DNA of 64,000 nt from a virus. A program made the translations under genes and the position numbers. The stretch is from the IMG/VR virus record IMGVR_UViG_3300021960_000018. The stretch is one strand, 5' to 3'. Below the pieces are notes generated by a model, which did no database searches, was not told the DNA's origin, and worked only from the letters and a program-made list of their open reading frames with translations. Shown one piece after another: positions 28,960-60,689 of this stretch; position 1 is the first letter of the stretch; each line of letters begins with the position of its first letter.

Positions 28960-28967
28960 TATTTATA
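28960..28967 (-). promoter_or_regulatory. T4 late promoter TATAAATA
   Basis: Exact consensus upstream of gp13. Confidence 0.8.
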
Positions 28968-28976
28968 TAATTTTTA

Positions 28977-29522
28977 TTATCTAAAACAGGGGCCTTCTAT
29001 CCATGCGACAAGAGATTTTCTTACTCCTTTTGTTACTGGAGTAACCCTATGACGAATAAATGAAGGAAATACTAGAACAGTTCCTTTCATTTTAAGATGT
29101 TCAGGATCCGGTTGTTCATACTGAGGATCAAGTTCAAAGCATCCGCCTTCGTATTCGCTAGGATCTGACAATTGAACTGTTACTGAAAGCTTTCTGTCAT
29201 AATTAGAATTGCTATCCCAAAAAGTATCAATGTGCCAATCATAATGACCTTGTTTTTCTTCGGTATATGTTGTAAATTGAATATCGGCTAGATAAGAAAT
29301 ATCAAATCCAAAGGCGGCTCTATTCGCTTGGTGTGCATATTCTAAAAGTCTATTTTTAATCCCCTGATCGCCTACCCACCGAATATCACTTCTTCTATAA
29401 TCCGCTTTAACTCCTTTTTCAGAAATACCAGCTTCGACCAATGGATATTGTTCACAGATACCTACAATTTCATCGACAATAGCGGCATCGCCGCCTGGCC
29501 ACATTCTCCAAATTTGATTCAT
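28977..29522 (-). CDS. 2OG-Fe(II) oxygenase (prolyl-hydroxylase-like)
   Basis: HYDWHID, RKLS, FPSFIRHRVTPVTKGVRKSLVAW. Confidence 0.93.
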   Translation of the reverse strand: MNQIWRMWPGGDAAIVDEIVGICEQYPLVEAGISEKGVKADYRRSDIRWVGDQGIKNRLLEYAHQANRAAFGFDISYLADIQFTTYTEEKQGHYDWHIDTFWDSNSNYDRKLSVTVQLSDPSEYEGGCFELDPQYEQPDPEHLKMKGTVLVFPSFIRHRVTPVTKGVRKSLVAWIEGPCFR

Positions 29523-29914
29523 GATTTATCTTTCTGCCTTTGCAATTTTGCTTGTCTAGTTTTAACTGGATTACGTTTAATCCAATTAGCATTATCTTCT
29601 AGTTCCGGGTTATGAATACCATCACCAGTAGCTCTTCTATGTTGCGGCTCAGTTAATTCGGACTTACCACCTGCGGGGGTAGGATCTGGGGTTTCAAGAT
29701 CCGGTGTATTCGGGGTAGGTTGATTCATAGCAATCCATTCTTCTTCAGTATAGGGGTTAACCTGTTCAGAATAATGGAATCCATAATACATTCTTTCATA
29801 CGCACTATCAGCCATAAGGTGCCGATGTTCATCGACCACCCTTTTTCTTTTTTCTTCATCTATATCTTTAAGTATGTCAGAAAATATTCTAACAGCTTCC
29901 AGCGTGACTTCCAT
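29519..29914 (-). CDS. Hypothetical protein
   Basis: 131 aa, tightly packed in operon; disordered Pro/Thr tail. Confidence 0.65.
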   Translation of the reverse strand: MEVTLEAVRIFSDILKDIDEEKRKRVVDEHRHLMADSAYERMYYGFHYSEQVNPYTEEEWIAMNQPTPNTPDLETPDPTPAGGKSELTEPQHRRATGDGIHNPELEDNANWIKRNPVKTRQAKLQRQKDKS

Positions 29915-29915
29915 T

Positions 29916-30386
29916 TTAGATTCCTAGCAGTTTATCCAAATCTTTTACTGCATCGACAAATTCCCCACCAGTACCTTCAAGAAATTCTTTATATTTTAAA
30001 GCTTCTTCGTTCAATAATCCCTGTTGATTTACATGAGGATGTGGGGGATCGTTACAAATAGTTTGGTTAGGATTACGACCATCTGTCATCATCCCCTGAG
30101 ATTGCCAATTTTGCATTTGCTGATGTGCATCTGCTGGATTATTAATAGTTAAAAAATCTACACCAGCTTTCGGAACTTGTGCAACTGGTCCAAAATGTCT
30201 CATCAAATCAACCGCAGATTCAATATGTTTAAGAATCATAAAGCCGGCGATAGCTGCTTTGTTATTCTGGTGTCTACTCAATTCTCCAAATTTTTGAATA
30301 GTATCACTAATTAGTTCTACTACTTCAAGCGGAAGAACTTGATTTTCAAAATCTTCATCTTCCAAATTTTCATTTTCTTCAGCCAT
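29916..30386 (-). CDS. Hypothetical protein
   Basis: 156 aa, tightly packed in operon. Confidence 0.65.
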   Translation of the reverse strand: MAEENENLEDEDFENQVLPLEVVELISDTIQKFGELSRHQNNKAAIAGFMILKHIESAVDLMRHFGPVAQVPKAGVDFLTINNPADAHQQMQNWQSQGMMTDGRNPNQTICNDPPHPHVNQQGLLNEEALKYKEFLEGTGGEFVDAVKDLDKLLGI

Positions 30387-31275
30387 TCAAGACTTCCCCT
30401 TCTTTAATAAAATGGTCAAATGGTAACATATTTTCATCATTTCCCAATGTAGCAAAAGTTTCAGCAGCGTAATAAGTTTTTCTAGAATGATTACCCGTAC
30501 AACCATCACAAGTATCACAGAAAAATGAACATATAGGATGTTCTAATTTACCGGTATTCCACAGTTCTCTTAATTTATCTGCTTGTGCCTTTACTACTTC
30601 TTTTTGTTCTTCATCTAAATATTCTACGATTGATGTAATAACCCTTTTTGGATTAAACGCCTTTTGAATACGTAAAATATCTGGAGCAAAATAATGATAA
30701 TTATGCTGCTGAATAGTATAACGAATTCTAAAGTTAATAGGTAAACCTGCTAATAATTTACAAGCTTCAATCACATCAGTAGAAGATTCTTTTCCACTTC
30801 TATATATTCTATCTTTATTACCTACGCCGTCGTATGAAATATCCCAAGAGGATCTTTGATTAATCTCTGGATGGGCGGCAATATAATTTTTAAATTCCTC
30901 GAAAAATTTAGGTTTGGTCCAACGAATTCCATTTGACACTACATTAAAATGAACATTAGATTTCTTTCTAGTAGCATATTCCATAGACCAGCATAAATTT
31001 TCCCATTCAAGAGTTACTTCACCACCAAACATAACAAATAAAGTTTGGGATTCCATTGGTTCATTATCAATAGCTTTATCAATAGCAGCCTTTAGTTTGG
31101 CCCGGGTCATAATCTGTTTAGGCTGACCTTCTAATACCTCATAACAATATGTGCATGCAAGATTACATTGATTCGTAAAATATAAAACGTTTACTGCAGT
31201 ATCAGGAACTTCTTTATCATTTTTATGTTTATTATCGTAATAAATTTCATCCTGAATTTTCGGGGCGTTTGACAC
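30379..31275 (-). CDS. Radical SAM enzyme with short Cys-rich C-terminus
   Basis: CNLACTYC, FGGE, ISYDG; C-terminal CSFFCDTCDGC. Confidence 0.9.
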   Translation of the reverse strand: MSNAPKIQDEIYYDNKHKNDKEVPDTAVNVLYFTNQCNLACTYCYEVLEGQPKQIMTRAKLKAAIDKAIDNEPMESQTLFVMFGGEVTLEWENLCWSMEYATRKKSNVHFNVVSNGIRWTKPKFFEEFKNYIAAHPEINQRSSWDISYDGVGNKDRIYRSGKESSTDVIEACKLLAGLPINFRIRYTIQQHNYHYFAPDILRIQKAFNPKRVITSIVEYLDEEQKEVVKAQADKLRELWNTGKLEHPICSFFCDTCDGCTGNHSRKTYYAAETFATLGNDENMLPFDHFIKEGEVLNG

Positions 31276-31552
31276 CTTTTAAAGCCTCCGACATATTTGT
31301 TACAAATTCAGTGAAATCAATTTGATAATCATATAGATGGTTTTGAATTACTTCTTCATCTTTAATATACGTAATATCGACTCGAGCTAATTTTTTGGAT
31401 GCCACTCGATTTTGTAAATCTTGAGCCAGTTTTTCAGCAGACATAATCTTACTAGCATCATCCTCTGATATGCTATTTATCAGCTGCTTTGTACTCTGTA
31501 CAAGATCGATAACTTCTTTCTTAAGAATTGGTACAGGTAGATCAGGTCTCAT
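31247..31552 (-). CDS. Hypothetical protein between radical SAM genes
   Basis: 101 aa, overlaps both neighbours. Confidence 0.6.
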   Translation of the reverse strand: MRPDLPVPILKKEVIDLVQSTKQLINSISEDDASKIMSAEKLAQDLQNRVASKKLARVDITYIKDEEVIQNHLYDYQIDFTEFVTNMSEALKGVKRPENSG

Positions 31553-32634
31553 CCCATGCTCCTCATTAGATTTCTAACATAACCCTGGAATGCAGGTTCA
31601 TATTTACATTCTCTTAATAATCTCATTGCTTGTTCATTAATCATATGAAATAACTCGCATACAGAATCGACTGGCGCATTGTTATTATTAATCTGTGAAT
31701 AGGTACAACCCATATTACAAACTTGACGAAGGCGACATGTATCGCACTTTTTATGGTTTAAGTTTGATAATGCATTTTGCCAATATTCATAATCGTACGT
31801 AGCACCATCCATTGGCATAAGCTTTTTAGATGCGAAGCGAGCACATGGATAAAATTTTCCCTCTGGTACTAGAACCGCACCGGAATAACCTGCAAAGCAA
31901 CCGAATGGTCTTTTACCTTTTGCAAGACCGATAGTCATATCCTGTAATGCAAGAGATAAGAATCCAACCGAAACGTTTCTTCCATCTTTAAAATATTGGA
32001 TGGTTCTATCGGTTAATTTAATTAGTTCCTGATAGAATGTTCTAAGATGATCTTCTCTCCAAACATTATCACGAACAATACAGAAATCTGGATTCCATAC
32101 ACCCCAATCAACCAAGAATTCTAAATTCTCGGTCATTGTTCCCGCATTACCGGGATAGATCATAACTTTACAACCGGATCTACCATGCTTAAGAACAAGA
32201 TCTTTTTTGGCTTCATAGATCTCCATAATATCGTTAAACCCTTCATTCGCTTTATGGTTACGAATTAAAGGTCTTGACTCATTTGATCCAATGCCGTCAA
32301 AGCTCCAAGAGATTGAGATTTCATTATCTTCAATAAATTGGCTTTTATACTCATCGATCATAGTCATATTAGTAATAATAACTAGATGTTTACATTTAGG
32401 ATCACTTTTAAAATATTTAGTAGCATGCTCAATTAATTCCCAATTAAGCATGGGTTCTCCACCAAAGAATGATACTGCATATTCATCATTATTACTTCTA
32501 CGGATTAATTCCTGTAATTCATCTACGGAATTATCAAAAGTCTCTTTAGTAAGAAATGTCGGTTTATTCACAACATAGCAATAAGGACAAGCAAGGTTAC
32601 ATTGTTCCGTTGTAGATAATTCTAATGTAAACAT
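31549..32634 (-). CDS. Radical SAM/SPASM peptide maturase-like enzyme
   Basis: CNLACPYC, FFGGEP, SFDG; SPASM CFAG...YPC...CDTC..VCNMGC...C. Confidence 0.93.
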   Translation of the reverse strand: MFTLELSTTEQCNLACPYCYVVNKPTFLTKETFDNSVDELQELIRRSNNDEYAVSFFGGEPMLNWELIEHATKYFKSDPKCKHLVIITNMTMIDEYKSQFIEDNEISISWSFDGIGSNESRPLIRNHKANEGFNDIMEIYEAKKDLVLKHGRSGCKVMIYPGNAGTMTENLEFLVDWGVWNPDFCIVRDNVWREDHLRTFYQELIKLTDRTIQYFKDGRNVSVGFLSLALQDMTIGLAKGKRPFGCFAGYSGAVLVPEGKFYPCARFASKKLMPMDGATYDYEYWQNALSNLNHKKCDTCRLRQVCNMGCTYSQINNNNAPVDSVCELFHMINEQAMRLLRECKYEPAFQGYVRNLMRSMG

Positions 32635-33921
32635 TTATTCCCCCGGAATCACAAATTCTTTTTTAGCACTAATGCTAGATTTAACTTCTGCAGGAATCAT
32701 TACGTGTTTTTTATTCGGAGAAGATTTCTGAACAGTACGTTCTTGAATATATCTAGGATCAGTTGCTTCTACTTCTACAAACTGATAAGTTGTTTGCGGA
32801 ATGGCCATCGGTTGTCCAGTAGGTCTTGCTGCCATCACCGCATTAATAATAGGCGTAGCGGTTTTAAATACTGAACACATGCCGGTATTAGCTGGGTTAT
32901 CCTGCCAAGCTGTACCATATCCTTTTTCTTTTTTAGCAGATTTCTCATAAGAAGAAGCTGGGCATTTTAGACAGAATGGGCTTGAGCAACTATTGCACCA
33001 GACCTCTGTATTTTTATTAAAGTCATCCAGATAGCTTTTATATTTTGCGGACATATCTTTAATGACTTCATTTAGATCTTCTTTCATTACATTTCCTAAA
33101 GCGTGATCGCTTTGGTTCCTGTACATACACCCGTGACAGGGATAACTCTGACCATCAAGATCAATAGAGATAACGTCGATACCTGCAGAACAGTTTGCTC
33201 TCGATTGTCTAAACCAACCGAAAGTAGTAAGTCGCATATTATTATCTAAAATGTGCCGCCCGATTTTAAGTAAGGAAACTTTTAAATCACTTAACCACTC
33301 TGCGCGATCTTCTTTCGACGCAGTAGAGTGAACGTCCGGTGTAGGCATATAATCTTCGCCAACTGATTGAAAGTCGAGGAAGGCTTCATACATATATTTA
33401 AAATTATGCCCTGATAAGGTTGGCTTAAGAGAAGCGCTGATCCCATTATCTTTTAACCATAAGAAATAATCTTTTACATTCGCAGAATATTTAGTAGAAA
33501 CACCGCCTGTAGTCAAACGCTCTTTACTATTAATTGGCTCACCGTCATAAGAAATCTGGATATGAAGCCTTGGCTGACGAGTTCTTTTAGGATGTTTCAT
33601 AAACTCATCGCGAAGCCATAGCAACTCTTTTTGGTATTTCTTAATATAAACCCCGTTTGTATAGAACATAAATGTTACTCTACGGTCATCCATAAGACCC
33701 TTCATAACATCCATACAAAGTTTCATATTCATCATGGGTTCACCGCCCCAGAAGTAAATGTTAATGTCATTATCATCTACTCCGCTGATCTTTTCGATAA
33801 GATCCCCAGCGCTTAATTCAGTATGTTGCTGAAAAGCAGAAGATAAACCGCAGGCGTCGCCTTCAGAACAATAGGTACACTTTAAGTTACATTTACTTGT
33901 TGTGTTGATTTCTATATGCAA
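32635..33921 (-). CDS. Radical SAM/SPASM peptide maturase-like enzyme
   Basis: CNLKCTYC, FWGGEP, ISYDG; SPASM CSAG...YPCHGC...CNSC...CLKC...C. Confidence 0.93.
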   Translation of the reverse strand: MHIEINTTSKCNLKCTYCSEGDACGLSSAFQQHTELSAGDLIEKISGVDDNDINIYFWGGEPMMNMKLCMDVMKGLMDDRRVTFMFYTNGVYIKKYQKELLWLRDEFMKHPKRTRQPRLHIQISYDGEPINSKERLTTGGVSTKYSANVKDYFLWLKDNGISASLKPTLSGHNFKYMYEAFLDFQSVGEDYMPTPDVHSTASKEDRAEWLSDLKVSLLKIGRHILDNNMRLTTFGWFRQSRANCSAGIDVISIDLDGQSYPCHGCMYRNQSDHALGNVMKEDLNEVIKDMSAKYKSYLDDFNKNTEVWCNSCSSPFCLKCPASSYEKSAKKEKGYGTAWQDNPANTGMCSVFKTATPIINAVMAARPTGQPMAIPQTTYQFVEVEATDPRYIQERTVQKSSPNKKHVMIPAEVKSSISAKKEFVIPGE

Positions 33922-34216
33922 GTTTAATCTCCTCTAACTCACGTTTTAAACTTAGAACTTCTTGTCTAAGTTCTTGATTGGCTTTTAATGTTAATACCGC
34001 CAATCCTCGATGATCGACTCTTTTAGTACCATCACTATCTATCCATATTAAAAGAGGATCTACATTTTCTAATTCATGTGCTAGTACACCGATTTCTTCG
34101 TGTCTCGGTCTAAAAGGCGAATCTATTTTATAACTATATTTGTAAATTCCAACAGTAGATAATCTATCCGCCCATTCCATATTTTTCAAACTCTCTTGTT
34201 TTCCATTCAATTCCAT
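33893..34216 (-). CDS. Stand-alone peptidase S74/intramolecular chaperone domain lacking its N-terminal SD-x-x-x-K motif
   Basis: YKYSYK...IGVLAHELE..P.L...DG.KRVD...L..L.LKA.QEL + coiled coil. Confidence 0.75.
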   Translation of the reverse strand: MELNGKQESLKNMEWADRLSTVGIYKYSYKIDSPFRPRHEEIGVLAHELENVDPLLIWIDSDGTKRVDHRGLAVLTLKANQELRQEVLSLKRELEEIKLAYRNQHNK

Positions 34217-34550
34217 TATCAGTTAGAAATTGTTCAACTTCGCTTCGAGTGACCCCGTCATATTTTAAAGTATAGGTATAACTTCTATTTTTCCACATAC
34301 AACATTCAGCAGCATAATTAAAAGTACCGGGCATAGGCTTTCGAGTAGTATTTTCTTTTTTACTCATTATAATAAGAAAGTTATTTGTAACGATCTTTGC
34401 TCCATACTTATTCCATTCTGAAATATCTGGTAATGGTGTTTCTGGATCTACTTCTATTACCATCCCAGGTTTTAAAAAGCCTCTAACTTCTGTAAGAGCT
34501 AATTGATTAATACCCTTATCCGAAACTAATGTCATTATAGATCCCCCCAA
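34164..34550 (-). CDS. Hypothetical protein
   Basis: 128 aa in operon, no motif recognised. Confidence 0.6.
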   Translation of the reverse strand: MGGSIMTLVSDKGINQLALTEVRGFLKPGMVIEVDPETPLPDISEWNKYGAKIVTNNFLIIMSKKENTTRKPMPGTFNYAAECCMWKNRSYTYTLKYDGVTRSEVEQFLTDNGIEWKTREFEKYGMGG

Positions 34551-35095
34551 AATTCATCCCATGAGGCTTTATCATCTGGACCGTGGGGTCTACAGTATTT
34601 ACCATTAATTAATTCGCCTTCTCCTTTGAAATTGGGATAGATGTTTGCAACTAAATGAGGAGGAAAATCATAATCTTCGATTCTAATAATGCCCCACATA
34701 GAGCTCGGGAACATTTCCCCACCTAAATAAATCGCAGGATATGTCGTATGTCTACCAATGTGATCAGGATCGGTACGATTATATAAAGGCATGTCACCAA
34801 TTTTTAGACTGGATGGATCAGCGCCTTCGATAAAATCAAATCCGAAAGCATTAAAATCTTCTAATAGTAATGCCATGTTCGATGCACCGGCAATAGCATA
34901 ATGTTCAACATATTTGTTATCTAATAAATCTTGCCAAGCATTATTTTCAGGATATATTCTTACTAAAAGTTCAGCTAAAAAATATACGGGCATACCCACG
35001 GGCGATCCCGCTACTTCCATTCTCAGTGCTCTATCTAAAGATTTTTTCCAGCATTCTAAAATAATAGAAGCCTTTTCCTGTTTCGTCCAGCTCAT
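34535..35095 (-). CDS. Hypothetical protein, weak NlpC/P60-like pattern
   Basis: LKIGD...H...AIYLG pattern, no recognisable catalytic Cys motif. Confidence 0.5.
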   Translation of the reverse strand: MSWTKQEKASIILECWKKSLDRALRMEVAGSPVGMPVYFLAELLVRIYPENNAWQDLLDNKYVEHYAIAGASNMALLLEDFNAFGFDFIEGADPSSLKIGDMPLYNRTDPDHIGRHTTYPAIYLGGEMFPSSMWGIIRIEDYDFPPHLVANIYPNFKGEGELINGKYCRPHGPDDKASWDEFWGDL

Positions 35096-35463
35096 TTATT
35101 CTTTTCACTCCATATCCAAAGAATGCTATAAAGATCGCTAAGAGGATTATATAATTGCCGGGATCTTCCACCTGCAGTATTTTTAGAAGTATCTGGTTTA
35201 TTCTTAATAGTTGTCATAAATTCCGAAAGAACCCGGGAAACATTGTCAGCTCCAAACCTTTCTGTTAACGGACCTTCAATATATTGAACCCCACTTTTAT
35301 AAAATGCTGGGGTATCAAATTCCACTCCGTCTACTTCCTGCCCACAGATATTATCGTTAGTTAAATATCCCCACATCATAAACAATAATAAATCATCACT
35401 ATTAGAAACTTCTGAAAAATTTCTTTTAAAAAAATCACTATTTTCAATATGTTTTACTAACAT
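35092..35463 (-). CDS. Hypothetical protein
   Basis: 123 aa, ATGA overlap with next gene. Confidence 0.6.
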   Translation of the reverse strand: MLVKHIENSDFFKRNFSEVSNSDDLLLFMMWGYLTNDNICGQEVDGVEFDTPAFYKSGVQYIEGPLTERFGADNVSRVLSEFMTTIKNKPDTSKNTAGGRSRQLYNPLSDLYSILWIWSEKNK

Positions 35464-35470
35464 CTTTCAC

Positions 35471-36004
35471 TTAGTTCCTTCCATCTAGTCCTTTAATATT
35501 TTCTTTGACAACAGGATCAGAGCAGCACTTGTTGCAGTTACAGGTACAGAAGTTACAATTGCACGTGCAGAAGTTACAGTTACAAGTGCAGAAGTTACAG
35601 TTACAAGTGCAGAAGTTACAATTGCATGTACAAAAATTACAGTTACAAGTACAGAAGTTACAGTTACAAGTGCAGAAGTTACAGTTACATAGACATGCTG
35701 CTGACCAAGTATTCAATTGAGTAGTTAACTGATTAAATTCAGTAGCTTGAATTACTGCCGATGCTGTAGAATAGGGGAAAGTACCAATTCTAGCTGTCAA
35801 ATCTGCTGCAAGATTATTTAAACGAGCAGCAGTAATTGCATTTCCTGCAGAAGCAGCAGGCCAGTTAGTACTTGTAGTAGAAGCACCTCTACGTGTTAAT
35901 TCATTGATAGCTTGATCCCGAATATTATTCCAATCAACGGCATCAATAAGAGTGCCGGCAGCAACTGTTGAATATTGGTTATTAGCAGGACAGGGCGATC
36001 CCAT
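35471..36004 (-). CDS. Cys-rich repeat protein: fibre-like N-terminus plus (CNCNFCT)x7; putative radical SAM substrate
   Basis: Seven exact CNCNFCT heptads, then CNCNKCC-SDPVVKENIK; 27 Cys in 177 aa. Confidence 0.85.
   Translation of the reverse strand: MGSPCPANNQYSTVAAGTLIDAVDWNNIRDQAINELTRRGASTTSTNWPAASAGNAITAARLNNLAADLTARIGTFPYSTASAVIQATEFNQLTTQLNTWSAACLCNCNFCTCNCNFCTCNCNFCTCNCNFCTCNCNFCTCNCNFCTCNCNFCTCNCNKCCSDPVVKENIKGLDGRN
35522..35689. repeat. Coding tandem repeat, 8 x 21 nt
   Basis: The seven full units differ only at synonymous positions of the minus-strand frame; the eighth encodes CNCNKCC. Confidence 0.95.
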
Positions 36005-36007
36005 GGT

Positions 36008-37207
36008 TTATACCTTCACTTCTACTTGACCTTCACCACTATTTATAGCGACGCCAACGGTTAGTCCTGGGAGATAGGTTTCTGATGCAATTCCAAATCC
36101 AGACCCACCTGCAATAATATAATTGCCCTTTTTAGCCAAACCATGAATTTTTACAGGAATTCTACCTTTAAGAGCAATAAACGGCCAAAGTGGATCATTT
36201 TGCTTTTCATCATCATCGTTCATTCTTAATCCAGGATTTTCGGAAACAACACCTGCAAGAGGAAGCCCAACTTGGTATAGTGTGACTTCATTTTTGCCAC
36301 CAATACCTAAAACCGTACCAATAGGATATTCTTTATCTGCATGATATCTTTCTGCGAGGTCAGCAAAGTTAGCTGACGTTGCATTACCAGAGAAAGTGCT
36401 ACAAGTTAAAGTATTACCTGTAAGCGTCATTTGAACCGTACCACCGGTTCCAGCATTATTCTCGGTATCACTATGCGATCCGCTAGTAAACCAACTAAAT
36501 CTGCTGGCGGATCTGAAGTATAAAGTGTTTGATTGAACGCCCAAACCGTAGCTAGAAGCATAAAGATCTACCATCTGTCTAGTTGCAGACCCGAATGATA
36601 TTTTAGAAGAAGTACCGAATTGCATATCGGTACCAGTAAACGCATCAGTAGTATCACTACGAAGGAATGATAGACTGTCAATGCCATCAAGTGTATCTGC
36701 GTTTGATGGTCCTGGAGGCCCAACTGGTCCGGTAGGTCCCGTAGGACCTTCGGGACCGGTAGGACCAGTCGGTCCGGTTGATCCAGTGTCCCCGACTGGA
36801 ATAGTAAAGTCGAATACAGCAGCCGTTGATGTACCAGAGTTTGTAACTGATACCGAACCACCCGCTGGACCTGTAGTAACAGTTCCAACAGCAATTGTCC
36901 CTGTTGGCCCGGTAGGTCCATTAGGTCCATTAGGACCAGTTGGTCCGGTTAAACCTCTAATCCCCCGAGTTAACCCAAAGTTAAATGTCGCAGCGGTTGT
37001 ATCACCAGAATTTGTTACAGTCGGCGTTTGGTCGGAATCTAATAGAGATACAGTGCCAATAGTAATTGTTGCAGCAGTACCCTTTGGAGCATCTTTAAAT
37101 GACGTGGCTTTCCAAATACCAGGATCAGAGTAATACGTATAGGTATTACCATTTATAGTATAAACCTGTCCATTCGTAGGACTGCCAGGAAAATTTAATC
37201 TAGCCAT
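36008..37207 (-). CDS. Collagen-like tail fibre protein with C-terminal ADLAERY-type chaperone domain
   Basis: [12 protein letters not shown]-terminus; GPT/GPN triplets; FADLAERY...GVVS.NP...[10 protein letters not shown]. Confidence 0.85.
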
Positions 37208-49156: not shown

Positions 49157-50173
49157 TTATTTATCCCTAGGATGATTTAACAGATAAGAATCCGTTGAGG
49201 GGCATTCTATTGAAAATCTAGATAAACGATCAAGATTGTCTATAATTTCTTTAATATGATCTGGGCTATTTGTATCTATCATACTAATGACTGGATAATT
49301 GTAAAGTTTTCCATCCGGAAAAAGATGTTGTACTCTTCCACTATCAGATATTGTTCTACCATATAGATGATTTTTAATATCCATATATCTTTCAGATAAG
49401 TCCATAGTATCTGCAAACGGATTACGATAAAGAATAGAATGATCTTTTGCTGGTCTACCTATCCCAATAGTAGGAATACCTATGTGCGGCGCCAAAGAAT
49501 AAAAAGAACCGGTATAAGAAAAATGTGCTTTTGCTTTTAAAAGAGTTCTATACACATCTTCATATTTTTGTGTATAATCTAGATATTTAATGTCTAAATT
49601 TTTTTCCGAAGCATAAGTCTCGATTGTATTAATACATTTTTTTATATTAATTCTATTCCAAGAAACTTTATTAGGATTTGCTTCGGGTTTTTGAAATGTG
49701 ATATAGTTTTCTGTATTATTTTTATTCCATTGTTCTTTTGTCGGCCATAACCAAAACAGACTAAATGTTCCATCAATGTTAATATCCATCTCCTCACCGG
49801 TATAGACAGATATTCTCATTCCTATATTTGGAAGTTTAAAATTGTTAATCATCCAATAGATTCGATCCACAGATGATTCGCTATCTTTATGCCCATAGAT
49901 ATTCCAAAAACAAGCGGGGGTTAATAATAAGACTATATTAACTATATCTGTCGATCGCATTAGTCCATCTTGCTGCATAAGATGCGCATCACAAAACATT
50001 TTTCCTATTTTAGATACTTGAGTTACCACTGTGTGGATAGAATGCCGATCAAATCTTACGATATAACTCTGGCCTAATTCTGCTCTTTTCCCATCAGATT
50101 CACAATTAATATAAATGGTTTTTAAATGTTCAACATGCATATTGCCTAAAGTCCATATATTCGTCTGCTTCAC
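49157..50173 (-). CDS. Putative GT-B (GT9-like) glycosyltransferase-related protein; paralog of 57159-58148
   Basis: AKAHFSYTGSFYSLAPHIGIPTIGIG resembles GT9 C-terminal motif. Confidence 0.5.
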   Translation of the reverse strand: MKQTNIWTLGNMHVEHLKTIYINCESDGKRAELGQSYIVRFDRHSIHTVVTQVSKIGKMFCDAHLMQQDGLMRSTDIVNIVLLLTPACFWNIYGHKDSESSVDRIYWMINNFKLPNIGMRISVYTGEEMDINIDGTFSLFWLWPTKEQWNKNNTENYITFQKPEANPNKVSWNRINIKKCINTIETYASEKNLDIKYLDYTQKYEDVYRTLLKAKAHFSYTGSFYSLAPHIGIPTIGIGRPAKDHSILYRNPFADTMDLSERYMDIKNHLYGRTISDSGRVQHLFPDGKLYNYPVISMIDTNSPDHIKEIIDNLDRLSRFSIECPSTDSYLLNHPRDK

Positions 50174-51698
50174 ATGCCCATTTACTCTTTTTACGAGAGG
50201 CTACGTGTTCATCACCATATTGAGCAATGGGACTAGAAAAGAATTCCTCTTGGTATATTTTTTCGTATTTAGAAAGATCTTTTGCAGCGTCGATCTCTGG
50301 CCACATACTTTCTTTAAAATATGCGTAATATTTAAATTTCTCAGTAAGATCCTGCATTTCATCCAACTGCAAATAGGGTTTCGGCATTCTCATAAATGGT
50401 AACCCCTGGAATCCCCCGTTGCTACCAATCTGATCCTCTTTAATAAATCCATGCTCTAGTGCTACTTTCCTTAGACCAGTACCATGATATGGAACAAATA
50501 AAGAAACGCCCAATCCATCATATCCTCCGATATCTTTACAGAGTCTAGCAGTATCCATTACCATAGATCTGGTTTCTAGAGGTAAACCAATAATAACATT
50601 CATACCATAAGGAATACCAGAAGCATTCATGATTTCTGCCTTTTTATAATATACTTCTTGTCTCACATTTCTTTTTAGATAATTAATACGATAATACTCA
50701 TTACCGCTTTCTAAACCGAACTGGATTCTTTCACAATGTCCCTCTTTCATTGCGGCAAGAATCTCTTCATCAATATCGTCAAATCTAGTATTACACCACC
50801 AGGGAATACCAGCATCTTTTAAAATATCTAAAAGAGGAAACAATTCCCTTTTTGGCCTAGCAGTAAACGAATCATCTAAGATAAACCAGAATTGAGGATT
50901 ATTATCTTTAATAGTTCTTTCTATTTTTCTTTTAACAGAATCTAAAGAATCTCTTCTTACAAATTTTTTATCCATATCACGAGTAGTAGGAGAATTGCAA
51001 TATGTACAGCTATATGGACAGCCCCTATAAGTTTCTAATTGTAGTGTTCGTCTAACTTTTCCTCCTATAGGTCTATAGAATCTTTTTTCACTAAACAATC
51101 TGTAATTAGTATAGTACTCGGACAAGTCTACTAGAGGCTGTGGAGGATTTTTTAATATTGTGCCATCTTCATTTTTAATCCACAATCCCTTTACATCCTG
51201 AATAGATTCGCCGCCCTTCATTTTACGAATAACATCTCTTACGACATATTCGCCCTCATATCGACACATAACTTTTACTAGTGGATTGGCAATAACAAGA
51301 TCAGGTGCATTAATAGGAAATACGCCGCCCACAATATGAGGAATATTTAGGTGGTTAACCGATTCTAACATTTTCATACCATCAAAGTAAGTATCCTCGA
51401 CGATGGATAATAGAATTAAGTCCGGTTTATATTCATTGACCTTTTTCACAAAATCAGGAATCATTTCTTGTGTAGGCTTTAACATTTCAAAGGCGTCTTC
51501 GTAATCAACCATAGCTCTACCGGCACCCAACTGTTCTTTACGAGTCTGGGCATCTGCAAAGCTTGCGTCATCATATGTTGATGTTTCGAATAGCTGAAAT
51601 TCAACTTCTTCCCTGTCGCAAATATCAGTAAAGTATGCTACTGATAAAGGTGGACTTAGCATCATGGGAAGATTTGGATAAGCCATTAATATTTTCAT
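50130..51698 (-). CDS. B12-binding domain radical SAM enzyme
   Basis: PPLS, IVGGV, YEGE; RGCPYSCTYC; DDSF; GLESG; IIGLP.ET. Confidence 0.93.
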   Translation of the reverse strand: MKILMAYPNLPMMLSPPLSVAYFTDICDREEVEFQLFETSTYDDASFADAQTRKEQLGAGRAMVDYEDAFEMLKPTQEMIPDFVKKVNEYKPDLILLSIVEDTYFDGMKMLESVNHLNIPHIVGGVFPINAPDLVIANPLVKVMCRYEGEYVVRDVIRKMKGGESIQDVKGLWIKNEDGTILKNPPQPLVDLSEYYTNYRLFSEKRFYRPIGGKVRRTLQLETYRGCPYSCTYCNSPTTRDMDKKFVRRDSLDSVKRKIERTIKDNNPQFWFILDDSFTARPKRELFPLLDILKDAGIPWWCNTRFDDIDEEILAAMKEGHCERIQFGLESGNEYYRINYLKRNVRQEVYYKKAEIMNASGIPYGMNVIIGLPLETRSMVMDTARLCKDIGGYDGLGVSLFVPYHGTGLRKVALEHGFIKEDQIGSNGGFQGLPFMRMPKPYLQLDEMQDLTEKFKYYAYFKESMWPEIDAAKDLSKYEKIYQEEFFSSPIAQYGDEHVASRKKSKWACEADEYMDFRQYAC

Positions 51699-52654
51699 AT
51701 TCTAAACTCTTTCATACTGAAAGCCCCTCCAGTTAATTTGTCATAACTTGTTTCAAAGTTAGACCAAACCAATGCTTCTGGCGCGTCATATAACATATCA
51801 CAGTTTTTGCAAAAGTCGATTTCATCAAAGCGATGGTCTCTATGCATTTGTCTTAGCCATTGATATTTATCCCCGTTCCAAACCTCTTCTATGGTTTGAT
51901 CTGATAAATGACCTAAGACGCCTTTGCTATCTTGTCCCAATACCATACAGCAAGGAACCACGGCACCTTGTTTACCATCATTCCCGCCCGCGCGAACAAT
52001 TAGGTCAGGAGAAAATGGTCTACCGCAAGATCTTTTCTCTGGTTTCTTTCTCCAGTTAATCTCATCATACACCCCGGACCAATTGTGCATTTTCCAAATT
52101 GAAGACTTAATACCGGGAACATGATTAATCCAATTATTCTGATATTCCTGGGATTCAAACTCTGCTTGATTATTATCTAGTATAAGATGATAAGATCCAA
52201 TTTTACCTGCGCCTCCATATTCAATAGCGGCATTAGCGTTATCCATAACTTCATAAAAAGCGTCTTTGCTCATCCACTTGTGATAAAGTTCTGGATTATA
52301 ACCAGTAACAGAAATACGAGCGAAATGCAATCCTGCATCTACTACTCGTTTCATTAGATCATCTTTAAACCAAAAGCCATTCGTAATAAAACACATTCGG
52401 AATCCACGATCAGTACCAGCCTGAACATAATCGGCAAGTCTTTTATTCATAGTCGGCTCACCAGAACCTTCGAGATAGATTTCTTCTACCTCACTATCTT
52501 TTAACTGATCGAGAGTATTACAAAACAAATCGAAGTTCATCATTCGTTTAAATGGGGATTCTCTACCACCCATTTCTAATGACTGTGGACAAAACTTACA
52601 TGAATAGTTGCATGATCCACATACTTCAATTACTGCCTTTTTAATCGGCAACAT
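51695..52654 (-). CDS. Radical SAM enzyme with C-terminal SPASM/Twitch domain
   Basis: CNYSCKFC, GEP; CGRPF...VPCC...CKNC. Confidence 0.93.
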   Translation of the reverse strand: MLPIKKAVIEVCGSCNYSCKFCPQSLEMGGRESPFKRMMNFDLFCNTLDQLKDSEVEEIYLEGSGEPTMNKRLADYVQAGTDRGFRMCFITNGFWFKDDLMKRVVDAGLHFARISVTGYNPELYHKWMSKDAFYEVMDNANAAIEYGGAGKIGSYHLILDNNQAEFESQEYQNNWINHVPGIKSSIWKMHNWSGVYDEINWRKKPEKRSCGRPFSPDLIVRAGGNDGKQGAVVPCCMVLGQDSKGVLGHLSDQTIEEVWNGDKYQWLRQMHRDHRFDEIDFCKNCDMLYDAPEALVWSNFETSYDKLTGGAFSMKEFRI

Positions 52655-52664
52655 AGTGGGTTCC

Positions 52665-52784
52665 TTATTCGTCTAAATCGTCTTCGTAAATAAAATTATA
52701 AGTTCGATCCGGTTCCTTTTTGCGGAATCTACTTAAAAACAGTAGGATTCTATATTTCCAAATTCTTAGTTTTTTTATTTTCAT
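52665..52784 (-). CDS. 39 aa basic peptide with FIY motif (SxtK/DUF5989-like); absent from ORF track
   Basis: MKIKKLRIWKYRILLFLSRFRKKEPDRTYNFIYEDDLDE; ATGA overlap; fills the gap. Confidence 0.6.
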   Translation of the reverse strand: MKIKKLRIWKYRILLFLSRFRKKEPDRTYNFIYEDDLDE

Positions 52785-53671
52785 AGAGTTGATCCTATAT
52801 GTTTGATAAAATGTTCAGCCATAAATTCTTGACCTAATTTATTTGGGTGCCCATCCGTTGGCGATATAACATGTTTATCATGCTCATCCCAGTTCCAATT
52901 TGTTAAAACATGACCGCCAAAGGTTTCTATAAATGGCCATCCGATAATCTTAGAGTAATATTTAGGGTCTTGATCTATCTTTTTAAAATATGGATTTTTT
53001 AAAAATTCTGTGTTAAAATTATCTCTGTCTACCATATAAGGATCTTTTAAATCGAAATTTCTGACTTGCGATATATATTTTGCATACCTAATTCCTTGGT
53101 ATCTGTCAAAGCTGAATTTTCCGTCAACTGATGTTGGTGAAGGAAGTGTTACACCTGAAGCGTGGGGAGCAAACGCAAGACCCACTGTAATAGGAATATT
53201 TAAAAGTTCACAGGTATCTATTAATCTAATTAATAGTTTAAAGTTATAATCTATAAAGAGTCTGGTATCAAAATAAATTTGAAGACCCAAATCTATGATA
53301 TATCTTCTTATATTATAATCTTCAGCACTCTGATTAGGATCTGGATATCCGTTTTCCATTGAAAACTGAACAAATTGATCGTAGGACATTTGATTCGAAG
53401 AAGAAAAAACTCTAAAATTTTCATCTTCTGGAAATTGCGCATAAAATCTATAAAATTCCGTCATTGCATATAATAAATGCTTGGGTTTATTATTTTTTTT
53501 CTTTATTAGAACATCTATAATTTTATCAAATTGGGAATCGTTAGCTCCTCCACCTACTCCCACATTATTAACTCTTATATTGTAATGTTTTCCTACTAAT
53601 GCGGGCCACACTGGAAAATCATATTGATCAGCCGTGAAACTGCAGCCTCCGCAAAGAATATAATCATTCAT
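52781..53671 (-). CDS. SGNH/GDSL hydrolase-like protein
   Basis: GGCSFT, NVGVGGGAN, DGHPN..G. Confidence 0.8.
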   Translation of the reverse strand: MNDYILCGGCSFTADQYDFPVWPALVGKHYNIRVNNVGVGGGANDSQFDKIIDVLIKKKNNKPKHLLYAMTEFYRFYAQFPEDENFRVFSSSNQMSYDQFVQFSMENGYPDPNQSAEDYNIRRYIIDLGLQIYFDTRLFIDYNFKLLIRLIDTCELLNIPITVGLAFAPHASGVTLPSPTSVDGKFSFDRYQGIRYAKYISQVRNFDLKDPYMVDRDNFNTEFLKNPYFKKIDQDPKYYSKIIGWPFIETFGGHVLTNWNWDEHDKHVISPTDGHPNKLGQEFMAEHFIKHIGSTL

Positions 53672-54602
53672 TTATTCTATCCCTATATTCTTTAAGAAAG
53701 TATTTTTTAATTAACATTTGACCATTTCCATTAGGATGCCTATCTAAAAGCGATATCCTATATGGTGTTGTTTCATAAGTATAATTATTATCTTTCTCTA
53801 AACGACTTATAATATGATCTAGATAATATCCCCCTAACTCTGGAAAAAATGGCCATCCGATTGGTCTATCTTCTCTATCATCTATATTATTAAAATATTG
53901 ATTACCCATTAAAGCTTTGTGAAAAAGTTTATAATTAAAAAGGTTCAAACCGTTGATTTTGCCTTCCGATTGTAATTTTTTAATATAATCTGGTATTCTA
54001 TTTTCAATTGCGTAAAATCCAGTAGGGGTTAACCCTTGCATTATAAAAAGAGGAATATTCATAGAATCACAAATCATATATAAGTATTCAACAGGTCTTA
54101 GATTAGAACTTATAATAGTTTCCGGCTTCATACTATGCCGGTTGGCTTCTATTTGATATTTTGTAAATGCAAGTTTTAGTTTTAAATGCTTTATATGATC
54201 ACTTTCTTTAATAGAAGGATCATAATTTTCCATACCTTTAATAACATTTCTTAATTCTATTTGATCATGTGTTATCTTATTTTCCTCAATTTTTGCATAA
54301 AGTGATGTTAATTCATTAGTAGGGTTAAAATTTACTGCTCCTAAAATATGATGCCTATCCCAGCCAGATAGTAATACAAATACAGCTTTTGGTTTTTCTT
54401 TAGCTGCAAATAAATAATCTACTGTTTCCATGCAAATTCTATGATTACCATGGCCATTAGATCCCAAGTTGACTACATCACAATTTAAATCTATCCCAAG
54501 AAGTTCTGGCCAAAATAAAAAATCAATTATAACATCTGGATCTACATAGGGTTTATAATTTTTATTAGTATAACTACACCCGTGAGCTAAAATATAAGAC
54601 AT
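53664..54602 (-). CDS. SGNH/GDSL hydrolase-like protein (paralog)
   Basis: HGCSYT, NLGSNGHGN, DRHPN..G. Confidence 0.8.
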   Translation of the reverse strand: MSYILAHGCSYTNKNYKPYVDPDVIIDFLFWPELLGIDLNCDVVNLGSNGHGNHRICMETVDYLFAAKEKPKAVFVLLSGWDRHHILGAVNFNPTNELTSLYAKIEENKITHDQIELRNVIKGMENYDPSIKESDHIKHLKLKLAFTKYQIEANRHSMKPETIISSNLRPVEYLYMICDSMNIPLFIMQGLTPTGFYAIENRIPDYIKKLQSEGKINGLNLFNYKLFHKALMGNQYFNNIDDREDRPIGWPFFPELGGYYLDHIISRLEKDNNYTYETTPYRISLLDRHPNGNGQMLIKKYFLKEYRDRINE

Positions 54603-55918
54603 TAAAAAACCTTTACTTTATATTCTTTTTCGAAATCTTCTGCATCTTTCTCATTATTAACGATTGGCTGTCCTTTAATATTTAGGGATGTATTAAGTAA
54701 CATAGGGCAGGATGTTTGTTCGTACCACTCTTCAAGAATAGGTCGCAATATAGATTTACAATCAGACTTTACTATTTGTACCCGCGCGGTACCGTCCACG
54801 TGCGTCACGCTCGCGTGATCGTGCTTTGCGATTGCGACGTATTGCATATATTCATTCATAGGACCTTCGAAATAGTCCTCAGCAAATTCTTCCAGGATCG
54901 CCGGCGCAAAGGGTCGAAATTTTTGTCGCCGCTTAATTTGATTAACCGTATCCTTAACATCTCGTCTAGGGTCAGCAAGCAAGCTACGATTGCCAAGGGC
55001 ACGAGGGCCAAACTCACCACGACCATTTGCAATGCCACAATAAGAATGATCAATAAGATGTTGTACAACTTCTTTAACATTTACATTCCTCCTGATATCA
55101 TATCCTAGATATGGCCCTTGCCAATCTAGCATATGTCCATTAATTGCTGCTGCAGCACCCAACGATGATCCGGCATCACCGGGACATGGCATAATCCACA
55201 TATCCTTAAACATGGGTCGGATCTTAGAATTAGCCACGCAGTTTAAAGCCACACCGCCGCCATAGCAAAGATAGTCAGAATACTTTCTGGCTTTTTCCAT
55301 AATGTGAAGAATCTCTTGTTCTACTCTTAACTGTGCGCTTGCAGCGAGATCTTCATAGTTATCTCCGAGATCTAAATCTCTCGCCCCTCTATGACAATTC
55401 GAATCAAATACATGATATAAAGATTGTGTCGGCTTACCGAATGCAGCCATACCCATAAGGATATACTCATCCTCCATAGGTTTTAGTCCGACGTAATCTG
55501 TAATAGCACTGTAGAACAAACCAATAGATTTGGGGTATTTCATACTCCAAACCTTTTTCTTCTTCCACCAAATAGATGCCGTATCCCACTCGCCGATTGC
55601 GTCAATTATAACACAAACTGGTTCACTTGTAAATGGTCTAGTATAATAGGCTGCGGCTGCATGAGACCAATGATGTTCTACATAATGATCATGCTTAGGC
55701 ATAGATTTCCATTTCTGCCCAGCATATAGTCTACGAAGATTCTTTTTAAATGGCTTTTCATAATATACTGACTCGCCTTTAATCTCCCAGTCTTCAATGC
55801 GATGTCTGTCGTTTTTCTTACGACTTATCCTTTCAGCATGTTCAGCAAATAGGATCTGATCATCCTCAATATATGCTATAGCCGCATCATGAAATCCGTA
55901 TGATAATCCAGTATACAT
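54602..55918 (-). CDS. Carbamoyltransferase (NodU/CmcH family)
   Basis: HDAA, ERISR.K, HHWSHAA, GGVALNCVAN, EFGPRALGNRS, FRPFAP, HVDGTARVQ, LLNTSLN. Confidence 0.96.
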   Translation of the reverse strand: MYTGLSYGFHDAAIAYIEDDQILFAEHAERISRKKNDRHRIEDWEIKGESVYYEKPFKKNLRRLYAGQKWKSMPKHDHYVEHHWSHAAAAYYTRPFTSEPVCVIIDAIGEWDTASIWWKKKKVWSMKYPKSIGLFYSAITDYVGLKPMEDEYILMGMAAFGKPTQSLYHVFDSNCHRGARDLDLGDNYEDLAASAQLRVEQEILHIMEKARKYSDYLCYGGGVALNCVANSKIRPMFKDMWIMPCPGDAGSSLGAAAAINGHMLDWQGPYLGYDIRRNVNVKEVVQHLIDHSYCGIANGRGEFGPRALGNRSLLADPRRDVKDTVNQIKRRQKFRPFAPAILEEFAEDYFEGPMNEYMQYVAIAKHDHASVTHVDGTARVQIVKSDCKSILRPILEEWYEQTSCPMLLNTSLNIKGQPIVNNEKDAEDFEKEYKVKVF

Positions 55919-57162
55919 TACATAGCCATCGCGTCTTTTAAGTCGGGTTGGATATCAAAAATATTAGAACCTCTAACCTTATTTAAATTATTTGTATAAT
56001 CTGTAAACGCTTGATAATAATTTCGTTTTTTCTCTTTGTCCCAATCGTTCATTTCTAATTCATAAGAGTTTAAATTAAGTAGGTTTTTAATTATAGTCTT
56101 ATATGGATAGTATCGTAATCCCTTTTCCGGATGAAAATATTTATCCTCAATAAATTTTTTTTCTGCTTGTCTCTCTGTATGTTTAACCTCGGTATAAAAG
56201 TCTAAAATATATTCATCTAATATATCCTGACTTAGTAGTTTAGGAGAACCATAATAAGGAGATTCTATAATATTTTCGAAATTGATTTTAGTAAGATAAG
56301 GCTTATCTTTAAAATACTGATAGATTTCTTTTAACCTAAGTATATTCCAAACGGAGACAGTAACTTGAATAGCAAATTTCGCTTGCGTTTCTTTGTAATA
56401 TCTTTCCATAGTTTTTACGGTAGTCTGAAAAGCCCCACCTCGAATCCAATCATAGGTTTCTCCGACCCCATCAATACTAACCGAAAGAGAAATTTTATTA
56501 CCTTGTTTATGTAAGGCTTTCATAATATCCAGATTTTCTTTTGACATGGTGTGCATATTACTAACAATAGTTATCTTGCAATTTTTATTCACGCCGATTA
56601 AACTTTTTAGGATCTTTGTATTTGCTTTATCCGCAAATGGTTCACCGCCTTTAATCATTAGGACTTCTAAGTCAGGAATAACTTTTAATACTTTTTCTAA
56701 GTCATGATCAGATATTTTATTTAGAGCATTAGGATCGAGAGGCGTACCGAGCACCTGCTCATGAATTTTATGCCACATTGAACTAAAATAACTGTTGCAC
56801 ATCGCACAACTAAGATTACAGATATTACTAGTGGTAACTTCTAAAAATCTAAATTTTAGATTATCTCTATAATATTCGTAAGGTTTATCTAATTGGGTTT
56901 CAAACCAATGTACATTCGACTCTCTGTTTAGTTTTTTATCGCGTATGCATCCATAGCATTCAGTGATATTATCCCAGCCCTTATCATTATTAATCTCTCT
57001 ATAATTTTTATATTTTTCATCTAGGAAAAAATCCTTAATTGAACTAATATCAGATAATTTAGTGCCGACCCTTCTTGAATTACAGCACAACGCAATCTCA
57101 CCTTTAGGATCTAATGTAAATCCAACAACAGGCGCAATACATGATTTAGGATATACTTTCAT
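55918..57162 (-). CDS. Radical SAM enzyme with N-terminal Twitch/SPASM-like domain
   Basis: CIAP...ALCC...CYGC, then CNLSCAMC, GGEPF, SIDG. Confidence 0.92.
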   Translation of the reverse strand: MKVYPKSCIAPVVGFTLDPKGEIALCCNSRRVGTKLSDISSIKDFFLDEKYKNYREINNDKGWDNITECYGCIRDKKLNRESNVHWFETQLDKPYEYYRDNLKFRFLEVTTSNICNLSCAMCNSYFSSMWHKIHEQVLGTPLDPNALNKISDHDLEKVLKVIPDLEVLMIKGGEPFADKANTKILKSLIGVNKNCKITIVSNMHTMSKENLDIMKALHKQGNKISLSVSIDGVGETYDWIRGGAFQTTVKTMERYYKETQAKFAIQVTVSVWNILRLKEIYQYFKDKPYLTKINFENIIESPYYGSPKLLSQDILDEYILDFYTEVKHTERQAEKKFIEDKYFHPEKGLRYYPYKTIIKNLLNLNSYELEMNDWDKEKKRNYYQAFTDYTNNLNKVRGSNIFDIQPDLKDAMAM

Positions 57163-60330: not shown

Positions 60331-60689
60331 TCTTCATCGTCCAAATATCGAGAACACATTACCATACAAAGTCTATGTGGGTTATCAGTATCCCAAGATT
60401 CTGGCAATGTCTTTTTAAACCAATCATGATTTAAAATATCTTCTAATGAATTGTTCATTAGATTTAGTTCTTTTTCGTTCTTATAATACTCTTGCATTAC
60501 CGGATTAGTAATATCATCTACACCTCTATGAAGAATATCAGGATCGTTATACTTACCAGTAACTCTCCACTTATATCCTTGATTCGCAAGATAGCAGCAT
60601 GGCCAAACTTGTTTATCAGGGTTTACTAGAAACTTATCTTCTTCCATCCATCGACAAACAATATTATTTTTATTCGGAGTGTTGCTCAT
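60327..60689 (-). CDS. Stand-alone SPASM/Twitch-like Fe-S domain
   Basis: C...VWPCC...C.VMC without radical SAM triad. Confidence 0.75.
   Translation of the reverse strand: MSNTPNKNNIVCRWMEEDKFLVNPDKQVWPCCYLANQGYKWRVTGKYNDPDILHRGVDDITNPVMQEYYKNEKELNLMNNSLEDILNHDWFKKTLPESWDTDNPHRLCMVMCSRYLDDEE

Follow-up and report, generated by a model that had tools for sequence, protein, structure and literature searches.

The radical S-adenosylmethionine (SAM) enzyme PapB forms Cys-x3-Asp thioethers, of which freyrasin has six in repeated succession, and the radical SAM/SPASM enzyme QhpD installs Cys-to-Asp/Glu thioethers in a protein subunit that stays in a larger assembly. S74 domains fold trimeric fibers and spikes, after which they self-cleave at a serine. 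A close precedent for joining such chemistry to a cysteine-rich repeat protein comes from the archaeon Methanococcus voltae, where mass spectrometry (MS) showed in 2026 that the C-X-X-Q/D motif of CrpA receives ranthionine cross-links from the radical SAM/SPASM enzyme CrpC (PMC13692751). Here we analyze a block of genes at positions 28977–36004 of a viral DNA stretch of 64,000 nucleotides (the whole stretch is called the window below), which is part of IMG/VR record IMGVR_UViG_3300021960_000018. The block encodes a 177-residue protein with an array of seven-residue cysteine repeats, hereafter the heptad protein, together with three radical SAM enzymes.

On balance, we favor the reading that the array is the substrate of the three enzymes and that the product is a fiber-type particle protein stapled by ranthionine-type thioethers. 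As far as sequence comparison can tell, the heptad protein, three dedicated enzyme clades (A, B, and C), and, in one branch, a helper of about 100 residues form a widespread and almost phage-only module. Because this module recurs in many unrelated phages, phages probably cross-link a protein of their own particles enzymatically.

The heptad protein and three clades of radical SAM enzymes

The heptad protein (35471–36004; like every gene of the block, on the minus strand of the window) contains 27 cysteines (15.3%), matches phrog_26958 at 2.5e-24, and is the sole genuinely cysteine-rich open reading frame (ORF) of the window's coding strand. A preliminary description made from the DNA letters had reported seven perfect CNCNFCT heptads followed by CNCNKCC; direct placement on the sequence agrees and puts this array at residues 106–161 (35522–35689). 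It lies between an N-terminal folded domain (residues 1–105; 35690–36004) and a C-terminal tag, S162-D-P-V-V-K167-ENIKGLDGRN (35474–35521). The DNA of the seven heptads differs at 12 bases, all of them synonymous and in the third codon position, which argues for selection on the peptide register and against an origin by recent slippage.

This repeat design extends across a large family. The heptad protein has 77 homologs of near its own length, and a family profile search gathered 357 clusters at 50% identity with E ≤ 1e-10. Statistics over 638 units from 105 proteins yield the consensus Ca-x-Cb-x-Cc-x-aromatic, to which one more residue may be added. Between Cb and Cc stands N, D, Q, or E in 98.6% of the units, Cc is followed by N or D in 96%, and the position after that holds Y, F, or H in 98.7%; the position between Ca and Cb varies (T, P, V, or I). 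In one third of the units, an additional residue comes after the aromatic and does not disturb the C-x-C-x-C core. Each unit thus reads as two overlapping conserved C-x-x-(N/D/Q) motifs. Scanning about 185,000 prokaryotic species genomes with a DNA pattern recovered a double unit in only two, both on contigs of metagenome-assembled genomes (MAGs) and one of them with the phage module; the family appears to be nearly confined to phages. In three loci (L014:9311–10459, L018:9195–10339, and L031:9884–11106), a single enzyme set is accompanied by two paralogous heptad proteins encoded in tandem.

The three enzymes represent clade A (428 residues; 32635–33921), clade B (361 residues; 31549–32634), and clade C (298 residues; 30379–31275). 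They score 33.3, 44.9, and 41.8 bits with Radical_SAM (PF04055), above the threshold of 29.5, and the CX3CX2C motif is invariant in all clades. In clade A, this motif is C11/C15/C18, the auxiliary cysteines are C244, C262, C309, C312, C317, C320, and C349, and the Pfam SPASM model also matches (PF13186, 29.1 bits). Clade B has invariant C12/C16/C19 and auxiliary C246, C264, C297, C300, C306, C310, and C326, including CX2CX5CX3C. Clade C has invariant C37/C41/C44 and just four auxiliary cysteines (C249/C253/C256/C259), i.e., one auxiliary cluster motif. The full seven-cysteine SPASM motif, which serves two extra 4Fe-4S clusters, is therefore found in two of the three enzymes (clades A and B), in agreement with the two SPASM enzymes originally proposed, although the Pfam SPASM model missed the 361-residue protein. 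The PapB model (NF047865) is the top NCBIfam family for all three enzymes, with 150.8 bits for clade B, 69.5 bits for clade A, and 62.2 bits for clade C. After it rank the CXXX-repeat, SCIFF, QhpD (92.8 bits for clade B), and other peptide-maturase models, and the best relative with a solved structure is CteB (PDB 5WGG; 4e-17 for clade B).

A small protein, of 101 residues in the window (31247–31552), is invariably placed between clades B and C where it occurs. Homologs occupy the same position in more than 15 loci, and H72, L73, and Y76 are invariant (H-L-x-x-Y motif). The small protein is a conserved fifth component of the module in one major branch.

Linkage of the array to the enzymes was followed in both directions. 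Using the family alignment, we found 31 viral loci with a heptad protein; a single-protein query had confirmed none of 18 pattern matches. Searches of cultured phages with the block (megablast) and with the heptad protein (tblastn) returned nothing, and a low-complexity filter probably hid the array, because homologs do exist in the CP220 group. Radical SAM genes are present in 26 of the 31 records, and in four of the five others the contig breaks off within 1.7 kb past the heptad gene. The preliminary description had held that its substrate idea would fail if such repeat proteins commonly occurred without radical SAM neighbors; a single true exception is far from this. Its suggestion to look for co-occurrence with these particular enzymes was likewise fruitful: the neighbors are orthologs of the three window enzymes, usually one each, with clade A directly adjoining the heptad gene in many loci. 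By our count, about 11 of 15 independent lineages have all three clades no farther than about 6 kb from a heptad gene. Four homologs in which the array is fused to an S74 domain share one cassette order: radical SAM, radical SAM, an ORF of about 100 residues, radical SAM, an ORF of about 125 residues, and the heptad gene. A further double-heptad protein, of 832 residues, is encoded on an Anaeromicropila MAG contig (L039:3490–5988) with no radical SAM gene in the 8 kb of sequence available; the contig represents a prophage fragment or else another possible exception.

The family also reaches cultured phages. A 534-residue homolog (phrog_26958) is found in the Campylobacter phages CP220, CPt10, CP21, and IBB_35. 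In CP220, it lies 2.2 kb upstream of the clade A enzyme, and the clade B and C orthologs are dispersed elsewhere in the genome. The best cultured-phage match of the window's clade A enzyme is the CP220-group gene that adjoins the CP220 heptad protein. The genome papers on CP220 and IBB_35 noted many radical SAM genes and gave no target for them.

The reverse test was seeded with clade B. Orthologs were defined by at least 30% identity and the array was sought within 10 kb. An array was present in 18 of 25 loci with a clade B ortholog, compared to 0 of 54 loci with only distant radical SAM genes (Fisher p = 1.7e-12 on raw counts; 13 of 19 vs. 0 of 30 and 1e-7 after rough de-duplication). The remaining loci include CPt10, in which the genes are dispersed, and L060, in which a variant array of C-T-C-N-V-D and C-x-C-D-Y units (L060:12430–12897) directly follows the clade B and clade A orthologs. 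The linkage can thus persist even as the repeat register drifts.

The S74 chaperone, the N-terminal domain, and the virion

Fused S74 domains begin SDxRLKxNI, and the C-terminal tag of the heptad protein aligns with this stretch. Many homologs run from the last unit straight into a Peptidase_S74 domain, the start of which reads CNCNYS-D-x-R-L-K, and the SDxRLK of these fused members (PF13884) is matched in the window's protein by S162 and K167, a serine and a lysine spaced by five positions. The tag is thus, by alignment, the first strand of an S74 chaperone. The remainder matches a separate protein of 107 residues (33893–34216), a split S74 body with a C-terminal helix that covers positions 15/16–54 of the 58 in the S74 profile, scores 17.3–17.5 bits against a Pfam cut-off of 22, and has PHROG matches to the C-termini of tail fibers. 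It aligns both with the fused S74 domains and with the stand-alone bodies of L015, L028, and L035. The window's module does not have a whole S74 domain in one chain above 22 bits.

In the window, the S74 body gene lies 1.25 kb downstream of the heptad gene, with three ORFs between them. In L015, L028, and L035, the break point is identical and a separate body gene follows within 10–25 nt; across these three loci and the window, the body proteins have 91–107 residues. This recurrence argues that the split is a conserved design and not damage, and it would be a natural example of an intramolecular chaperone that has become trans-acting. We found no description of split S74 forms, though none of the literature searches was aimed at them. 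In two further homologs (P0081 and P0084), a Hint (intein-like) domain replaces S74 after the array, by PF13403 in P0084 and by sequence likeness alone in P0081; the same place would then be taken by self-cleaving ends of two kinds.

The N-terminal domain was modeled with AlphaFold2 (AF2), which gave a pLDDT confidence value of about 90 over residues 10–105 and three strand-plus-helix units. E35, R38, and R39 are invariant. The start MGSPCP(A/T/S)N is near-invariant in the T4-like branch (residues 1–6 correspond to 35987–36004 of the window), another branch begins MACTGH..NGVAC, and the N-terminal cysteine is conserved. Foldseek found nothing in the PDB and weak matches to uncharacterized viral proteins in BFVD, i.e., no convincing known fold, and a comparison with VIA-wide gave Z ≤ 6.2, corresponding to common helical arrangements only. 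In the Atlas, the best match by shape is to a cluster of viral proteins, 91% of which carry Peptidase_S74. The domain is a candidate for docking, either to the virion or to the enzymes. Predicting a complex of three copies of the heptad protein gave a score of 0.01, which carries no weight for or against trimerization; it is the link to an S74 chaperone that suggests a trimeric fiber.

In some homologs, the array ends a fiber-type protein of 400–800 residues, and a terminal array on a glycine-rich fiber-type protein also occurs. In phage IBB_35, the product of gene 3-9, which by position and length is the heptad homolog, is among 38 proteins detected by MS in purified virions.

Proposed cross-linking and competing explanations

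We propose thioether staples because of the C-X-X-Q/D precedent of CrpA and the chemistries of PapB and QhpD. The block would be transcribed late, together with the virion genes. The enzymes would then act on the still-unfolded array, abstracting hydrogen from side-chain carbons and joining cysteine sulfurs to them in ranthionine-type thioethers, with the two C-x-x-(N/D/Q) motifs of each unit as the most likely donor-acceptor pairs. Three cysteine positions and three enzymes suggest one enzyme for each. The split S74 domain would complete its fold on the C-terminal SDxxxK tag, aid trimerization, and cut at Ser162, and the stapled array would stay attached to the particle, forming a short fiber of the neck or tail. 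That the array is the enzymes' substrate was already the central idea of the preliminary description, and the two-way, ortholog-specific linkage and the PapB-type affinity of the enzymes lend it support at the level of sequence. The more detailed picture is tentative, and we would sooner expect parts of it to change than all of it to hold: a ladder of overlapping staples on the fiber end, one enzyme per cysteine, and a split S74 domain that acts in trans on a 16-residue tag and both trimerizes and trims the fiber.

Several observations weigh against cross-linking of the array by these enzymes. The argument is one from gene neighborhood and family likeness, and the likeness is distant. The PapB scores are far below that model's cut-off of 340 bits, so the enzymes are not members, and with all NCBIfam scores far below the curated cut-offs they belong to no characterized family. 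No enzyme has room for an N-terminal, PqqD-like recognition element (RRE) of the kind found with peptides that are made by ribosomes and modified after translation (RiPPs), since the cluster motif begins at residue 11, 12, or 37. The 101-residue protein was considered as a stand-alone RRE, an idea that its low-confidence, all-helical AF2 model (pLDDT 57) does not support. AF2 also finds no confident fold for the array (pLDDT < 50), and the Asn and aromatic ladders could be purely structural. Among the 31 records, one contig of 43.8 kb (L030) has a heptad protein without any radical SAM gene, the sole true exception, and L041 has the enzyme trio with no array within 10 kb. Radical SAM genes are numerous in these phages, with 9 in the source genome and 3–16 in its relatives, so some adjacency is expected and the specificity of the association rests on orthology, not on mere presence. 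Finally, the virion detection of the IBB_35 homolog amounts to 2.6% coverage in one phage, for a protein three times longer than that of the window.

The array may be the substrate and yet undergo other chemistry, such as sactionine (S to C-alpha) formation, aromatic C-C or C-O cyclophanes on the invariant Tyr/Phe/His, conversion of cysteine to formylglycine, epimerization, or methylation. The low family scores are indeed spread over sactipeptide, cyclophane (YhhB, AmcB, DynA, and DarE), and anSME models, the aromatic position is conserved as strongly as the Asn/Asp positions, and the auxiliary-cluster layout of clade C differs. We consider these chemistries unlikely, given that PapB tops the ranking for all three enzymes, that CteB is their best solved relative, and that the C-x-x-(N/D/Q) spacing fits the proven ranthionine motif; as for formylglycine, the window's array is without the C/S-x-P/A-x-R sulfatase motif.

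The array could instead stay unmodified and bind metal or iron-sulfur clusters or form disulfides, serving as a metal-stabilized trimeric fiber or as a store of clusters, sulfur, or electrons for the radical SAM enzymes. Its CxC and CxxC spacings are typical of metal thiolate proteins, the phage has nine enzymes that depend on iron-sulfur clusters to supply, and the CrpA survey predicts metal binding for most of the cysteine-rich archaeal proteins that it covers (PMC13692751). Against this stands the linkage to three specific clades and not to radical SAM enzymes generally, a second island of six such genes lying 14 kb away in the same window. The conservation of Asn/Asp and aromatic residues has no obvious role in metal binding, and the self-cleaving S74 or Hint fusions and the fiber-gene context fit a structural protein. 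An unmodified array would, to our minds, be an improbable outcome.

A released RiPP-like product, in which the N-terminal domain acts as a leader and the stapled array is freed at lysis as, e.g., a toxin, a signal, or a metal binder, is a still more doubtful proposition. A leader-like domain, core repeats, and a cleavable C-terminal tag do follow each other in the appropriate order, and the enzymes resemble RiPP maturases; however, no leader protease, double-Gly site, or exporter is found in any cassette, S74 domains belong to trimeric fibers and spikes, the array is terminal on fiber-type proteins of 400–800 residues in some homologs, and one homolog occurs in virions. The preliminary description had left the choice between a virion appendage and a released peptide open. 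The S74 domain, the late-promoter-like motif discussed below, and the virion MS of IBB_35 favor the appendage, none of them decisively, and we regard a particle protein as more likely than a released peptide. Lastly, a merely coincidental neighborhood, with the radical SAM genes serving another pathway such as sugar or nucleotide modification, is very hard to credit, since despite the radical-SAM-rich islands with sugar-pathway genes beside the module in several loci and the dispersed copies of CP220, the association is two-way and ortholog-specific across lineages of differing gene order, with clade A immediately adjoining the heptad gene in many loci.

If thioether cross-linking of the array is correct, radical SAM cross-linking would reach virus particles, beyond small secreted peptides and a few cellular proteins, and phages would have a new means to harden or shape a host-contact or neck fiber. 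If both the stapled fiber and the trans-acting S74 domain are real, this would be the first enzymatically stapled structural protein of a virus and a new class of protein-sized substrates for RiPP-type enzymes. The presence of the family in cultured Campylobacter phages (CP220, CPt10, CP21, and IBB_35) makes these proposals directly testable, and the module could account for at least some of the numerous radical SAM genes of these phages, which have been puzzling since 2010 (PMC2853527). A very regular seven-residue substrate with three cognate enzymes could also serve peptide stapling.

The gene block and its relation to described systems

The source record is a complete 157-kb viral genome with terminal repeats, and the window is taken from its minus strand. 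The major capsid proteins of Phage C48C1, Pelagibacter phage HTVC008M, and the Methylophilales Melnitz phages share about 60% identity with that of the source genome, which is thus that of an uncultured marine T4-like myovirus. As described earlier from the letters, the block lies between tail-fiber genes and gp13: collagen-like and other fiber or structural proteins are encoded upstream, and homologs of gp13, gp14, and gp15, terminase, and sheath downstream. In T4, this place between the fiber and gp13 genes is occupied by the whisker gene wac. The gene immediately 5′ of the heptad gene (36008–37207, minus strand) encodes a collagen-like fiber protein with a G-P-T/N repeat. A homologous gene likewise stands ahead of the heptad gene in L002, L005, L008, L020, and L033, though low-complexity sequence may explain part of this match.

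A motif resembling T4-type late promoters, TATAAATA, is found at 36040–36047 (minus strand), embedded in the 3′ end of the gene upstream, at a distance of 36 nt 5′ of the ATG of the heptad gene. A second copy at 28960–28967 (minus strand) precedes the gp13 homolog and marks the end of the unit. With 12 matches in the window vs. 9.8 expected, the motif is not above chance; 10 of the 12 are on the coding strand, and most lie 10–40 nt 5′ of a start codon (e.g., 15327, 20392, 22117, 24555, 28960, 36040, 48614, and 63700). It is this placement that speaks for a late-promoter role. The preliminary description had found no intergenic late promoter in the block and thought read-through from the fiber operon probable. 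The motif is indeed intragenic, but with TATAAATA so close to the heptad ATG, read-through is not required.

The genes that the preliminary description listed downstream of the heptad gene were also recovered, with Radical_SAM matches in all three enzymes, a weak S74 match, and a 2-oxoglutarate (2OG)-Fe(II) oxygenase. The latter (181 residues; 28977–29522) matches phrog_61 at 2.5e-33 and PF13640, and shares the transcription unit. A 2OG or Asp/Asn hydroxylase as a partner of the module, an idea that arose from L002, was rejected: PF05118 occurs in 2 of 19 records and PF13640 in 1 of 19, with the genome of the window counted, and the window's oxygenase is missing from the other records that bear the module. 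Five further ORFs have no counterparts in other cassettes, apart from a weak homolog of one of them. Between the heptad gene and the S74 body lie an ORF of 123 residues (35092–35463), lineage-specific, with no Pfam or PHROG match and no homolog in related loci; a near-orphan of 186 residues (34535–35095), for which only its own cluster was found, besides a weak homolog 5′ of the heptad gene in L033 and L051; and an ORF of 128 residues (34164–34550) that library scans and comparison with related loci mark as lineage-specific. The 186-residue protein has a GD-x-P-x-Y...H...IYLGG pattern, and an Atlas feature search points weakly to clusters of the NlpC/P60 or CHAP type. This protein could be a cysteine peptidase. 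ORFs of 156 (29916–30386) and 131 residues (29519–29914) are not conserved with the module.

Further radical SAM genes lie elsewhere in the window. A second island (50130–61488, minus strand) contains six, with a carbamoyltransferase gene and several ORFs interspersed; one of the six has a B12-binding domain and two have a SPASM domain at the N-terminus, and no cysteine-rich ORF is nearby. In L121, L122, and the P0060 contig, runs of five to six radical SAM genes together with glycosyltransferase or sugar-pathway genes come just after the heptad module. In two unrelated loci (L002:18679–20612 and L007:1947–3694), genes for an acyl carrier protein, a ketosynthase-III-like protein, and a phosphopantetheinyl transferase lie in or right after the module, which may hint at a further acyl modification.

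No publication on such a phage module came up in literature searches that covered the repeat motif, ranthipeptides in phages, and CXXX repeats. The early impression that the system is not a described one therefore stands for phages, and gives way outside them, where CrpA and CrpC are a close non-viral precedent (PMC13692751). Among the more distant systems, the CXXX-repeat system (TIGR04114/TIGR04115, PF27846) likewise combines a radical SAM maturase with a cysteine-repeat target. TIGR04114 has no match in the source genome at E ≤ 1, TIGR04115 reaches at best 79.4 bits vs. a cut-off of 350, and its cysteines recur at every fourth residue, in contrast to the C-x-C-x-C-N-aromatic unit of the phages. 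A mostly viral Atlas cluster with PF27846 has a weak shape likeness to the model of the N-terminal domain (TM 0.48). The Peptidase S74 domain (PF13884) of endosialidases and tail fibers is homologous to the S74 body, with its SDxxxK start directly after the array, and differs here in being split.

PapB/PapA and CteB/CteA (SCIFF, 5WGG) provide the best family and solved-structure matches of the phage enzymes, respectively. Their substrates are peptides of about 45 residues, whereas the proposed phage substrate is a 177-residue protein with a structured N-terminal domain and is accompanied by three paralogous enzymes. The RiPP hallmark of a short precursor with an RRE-bound leader is replaced by a folded domain of 105 residues, and the module also departs from ranthipeptide systems in having no leader-peptidase or export logic. 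QhpD (TIGR03906) is the second-best family of the 361-residue enzyme, at 92.8 bits vs. a cut-off of 453. Its target QhpC differs from the heptad protein, being a subunit of a cellular enzyme with three unique cross-links and no repeat array.

With CrpA and CrpC, the likeness is one of logic and motif. In both systems, a radical SAM/SPASM enzyme is encoded beside a cysteine-rich repeat protein, not a short peptide; its N-terminal portion is conserved or folded, and each repeat contains a motif of the C-x-x-(Q/D) type. The enzymes themselves are not close: among the best 25 families for each protein, the CrpC family (TIGR04463) appears for the 298-residue enzyme only, at 26.5 bits vs. a cut-off of 525. 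CrpA and CrpC are archaeal and cellular, with one enzyme that carries an RRE and repeats of 17 residues. The phage module, in contrast, is viral and combines three enzymes without an RRE, three-cysteine repeats of 7–8 residues, an S74 or Hint end, and a setting among fiber genes.

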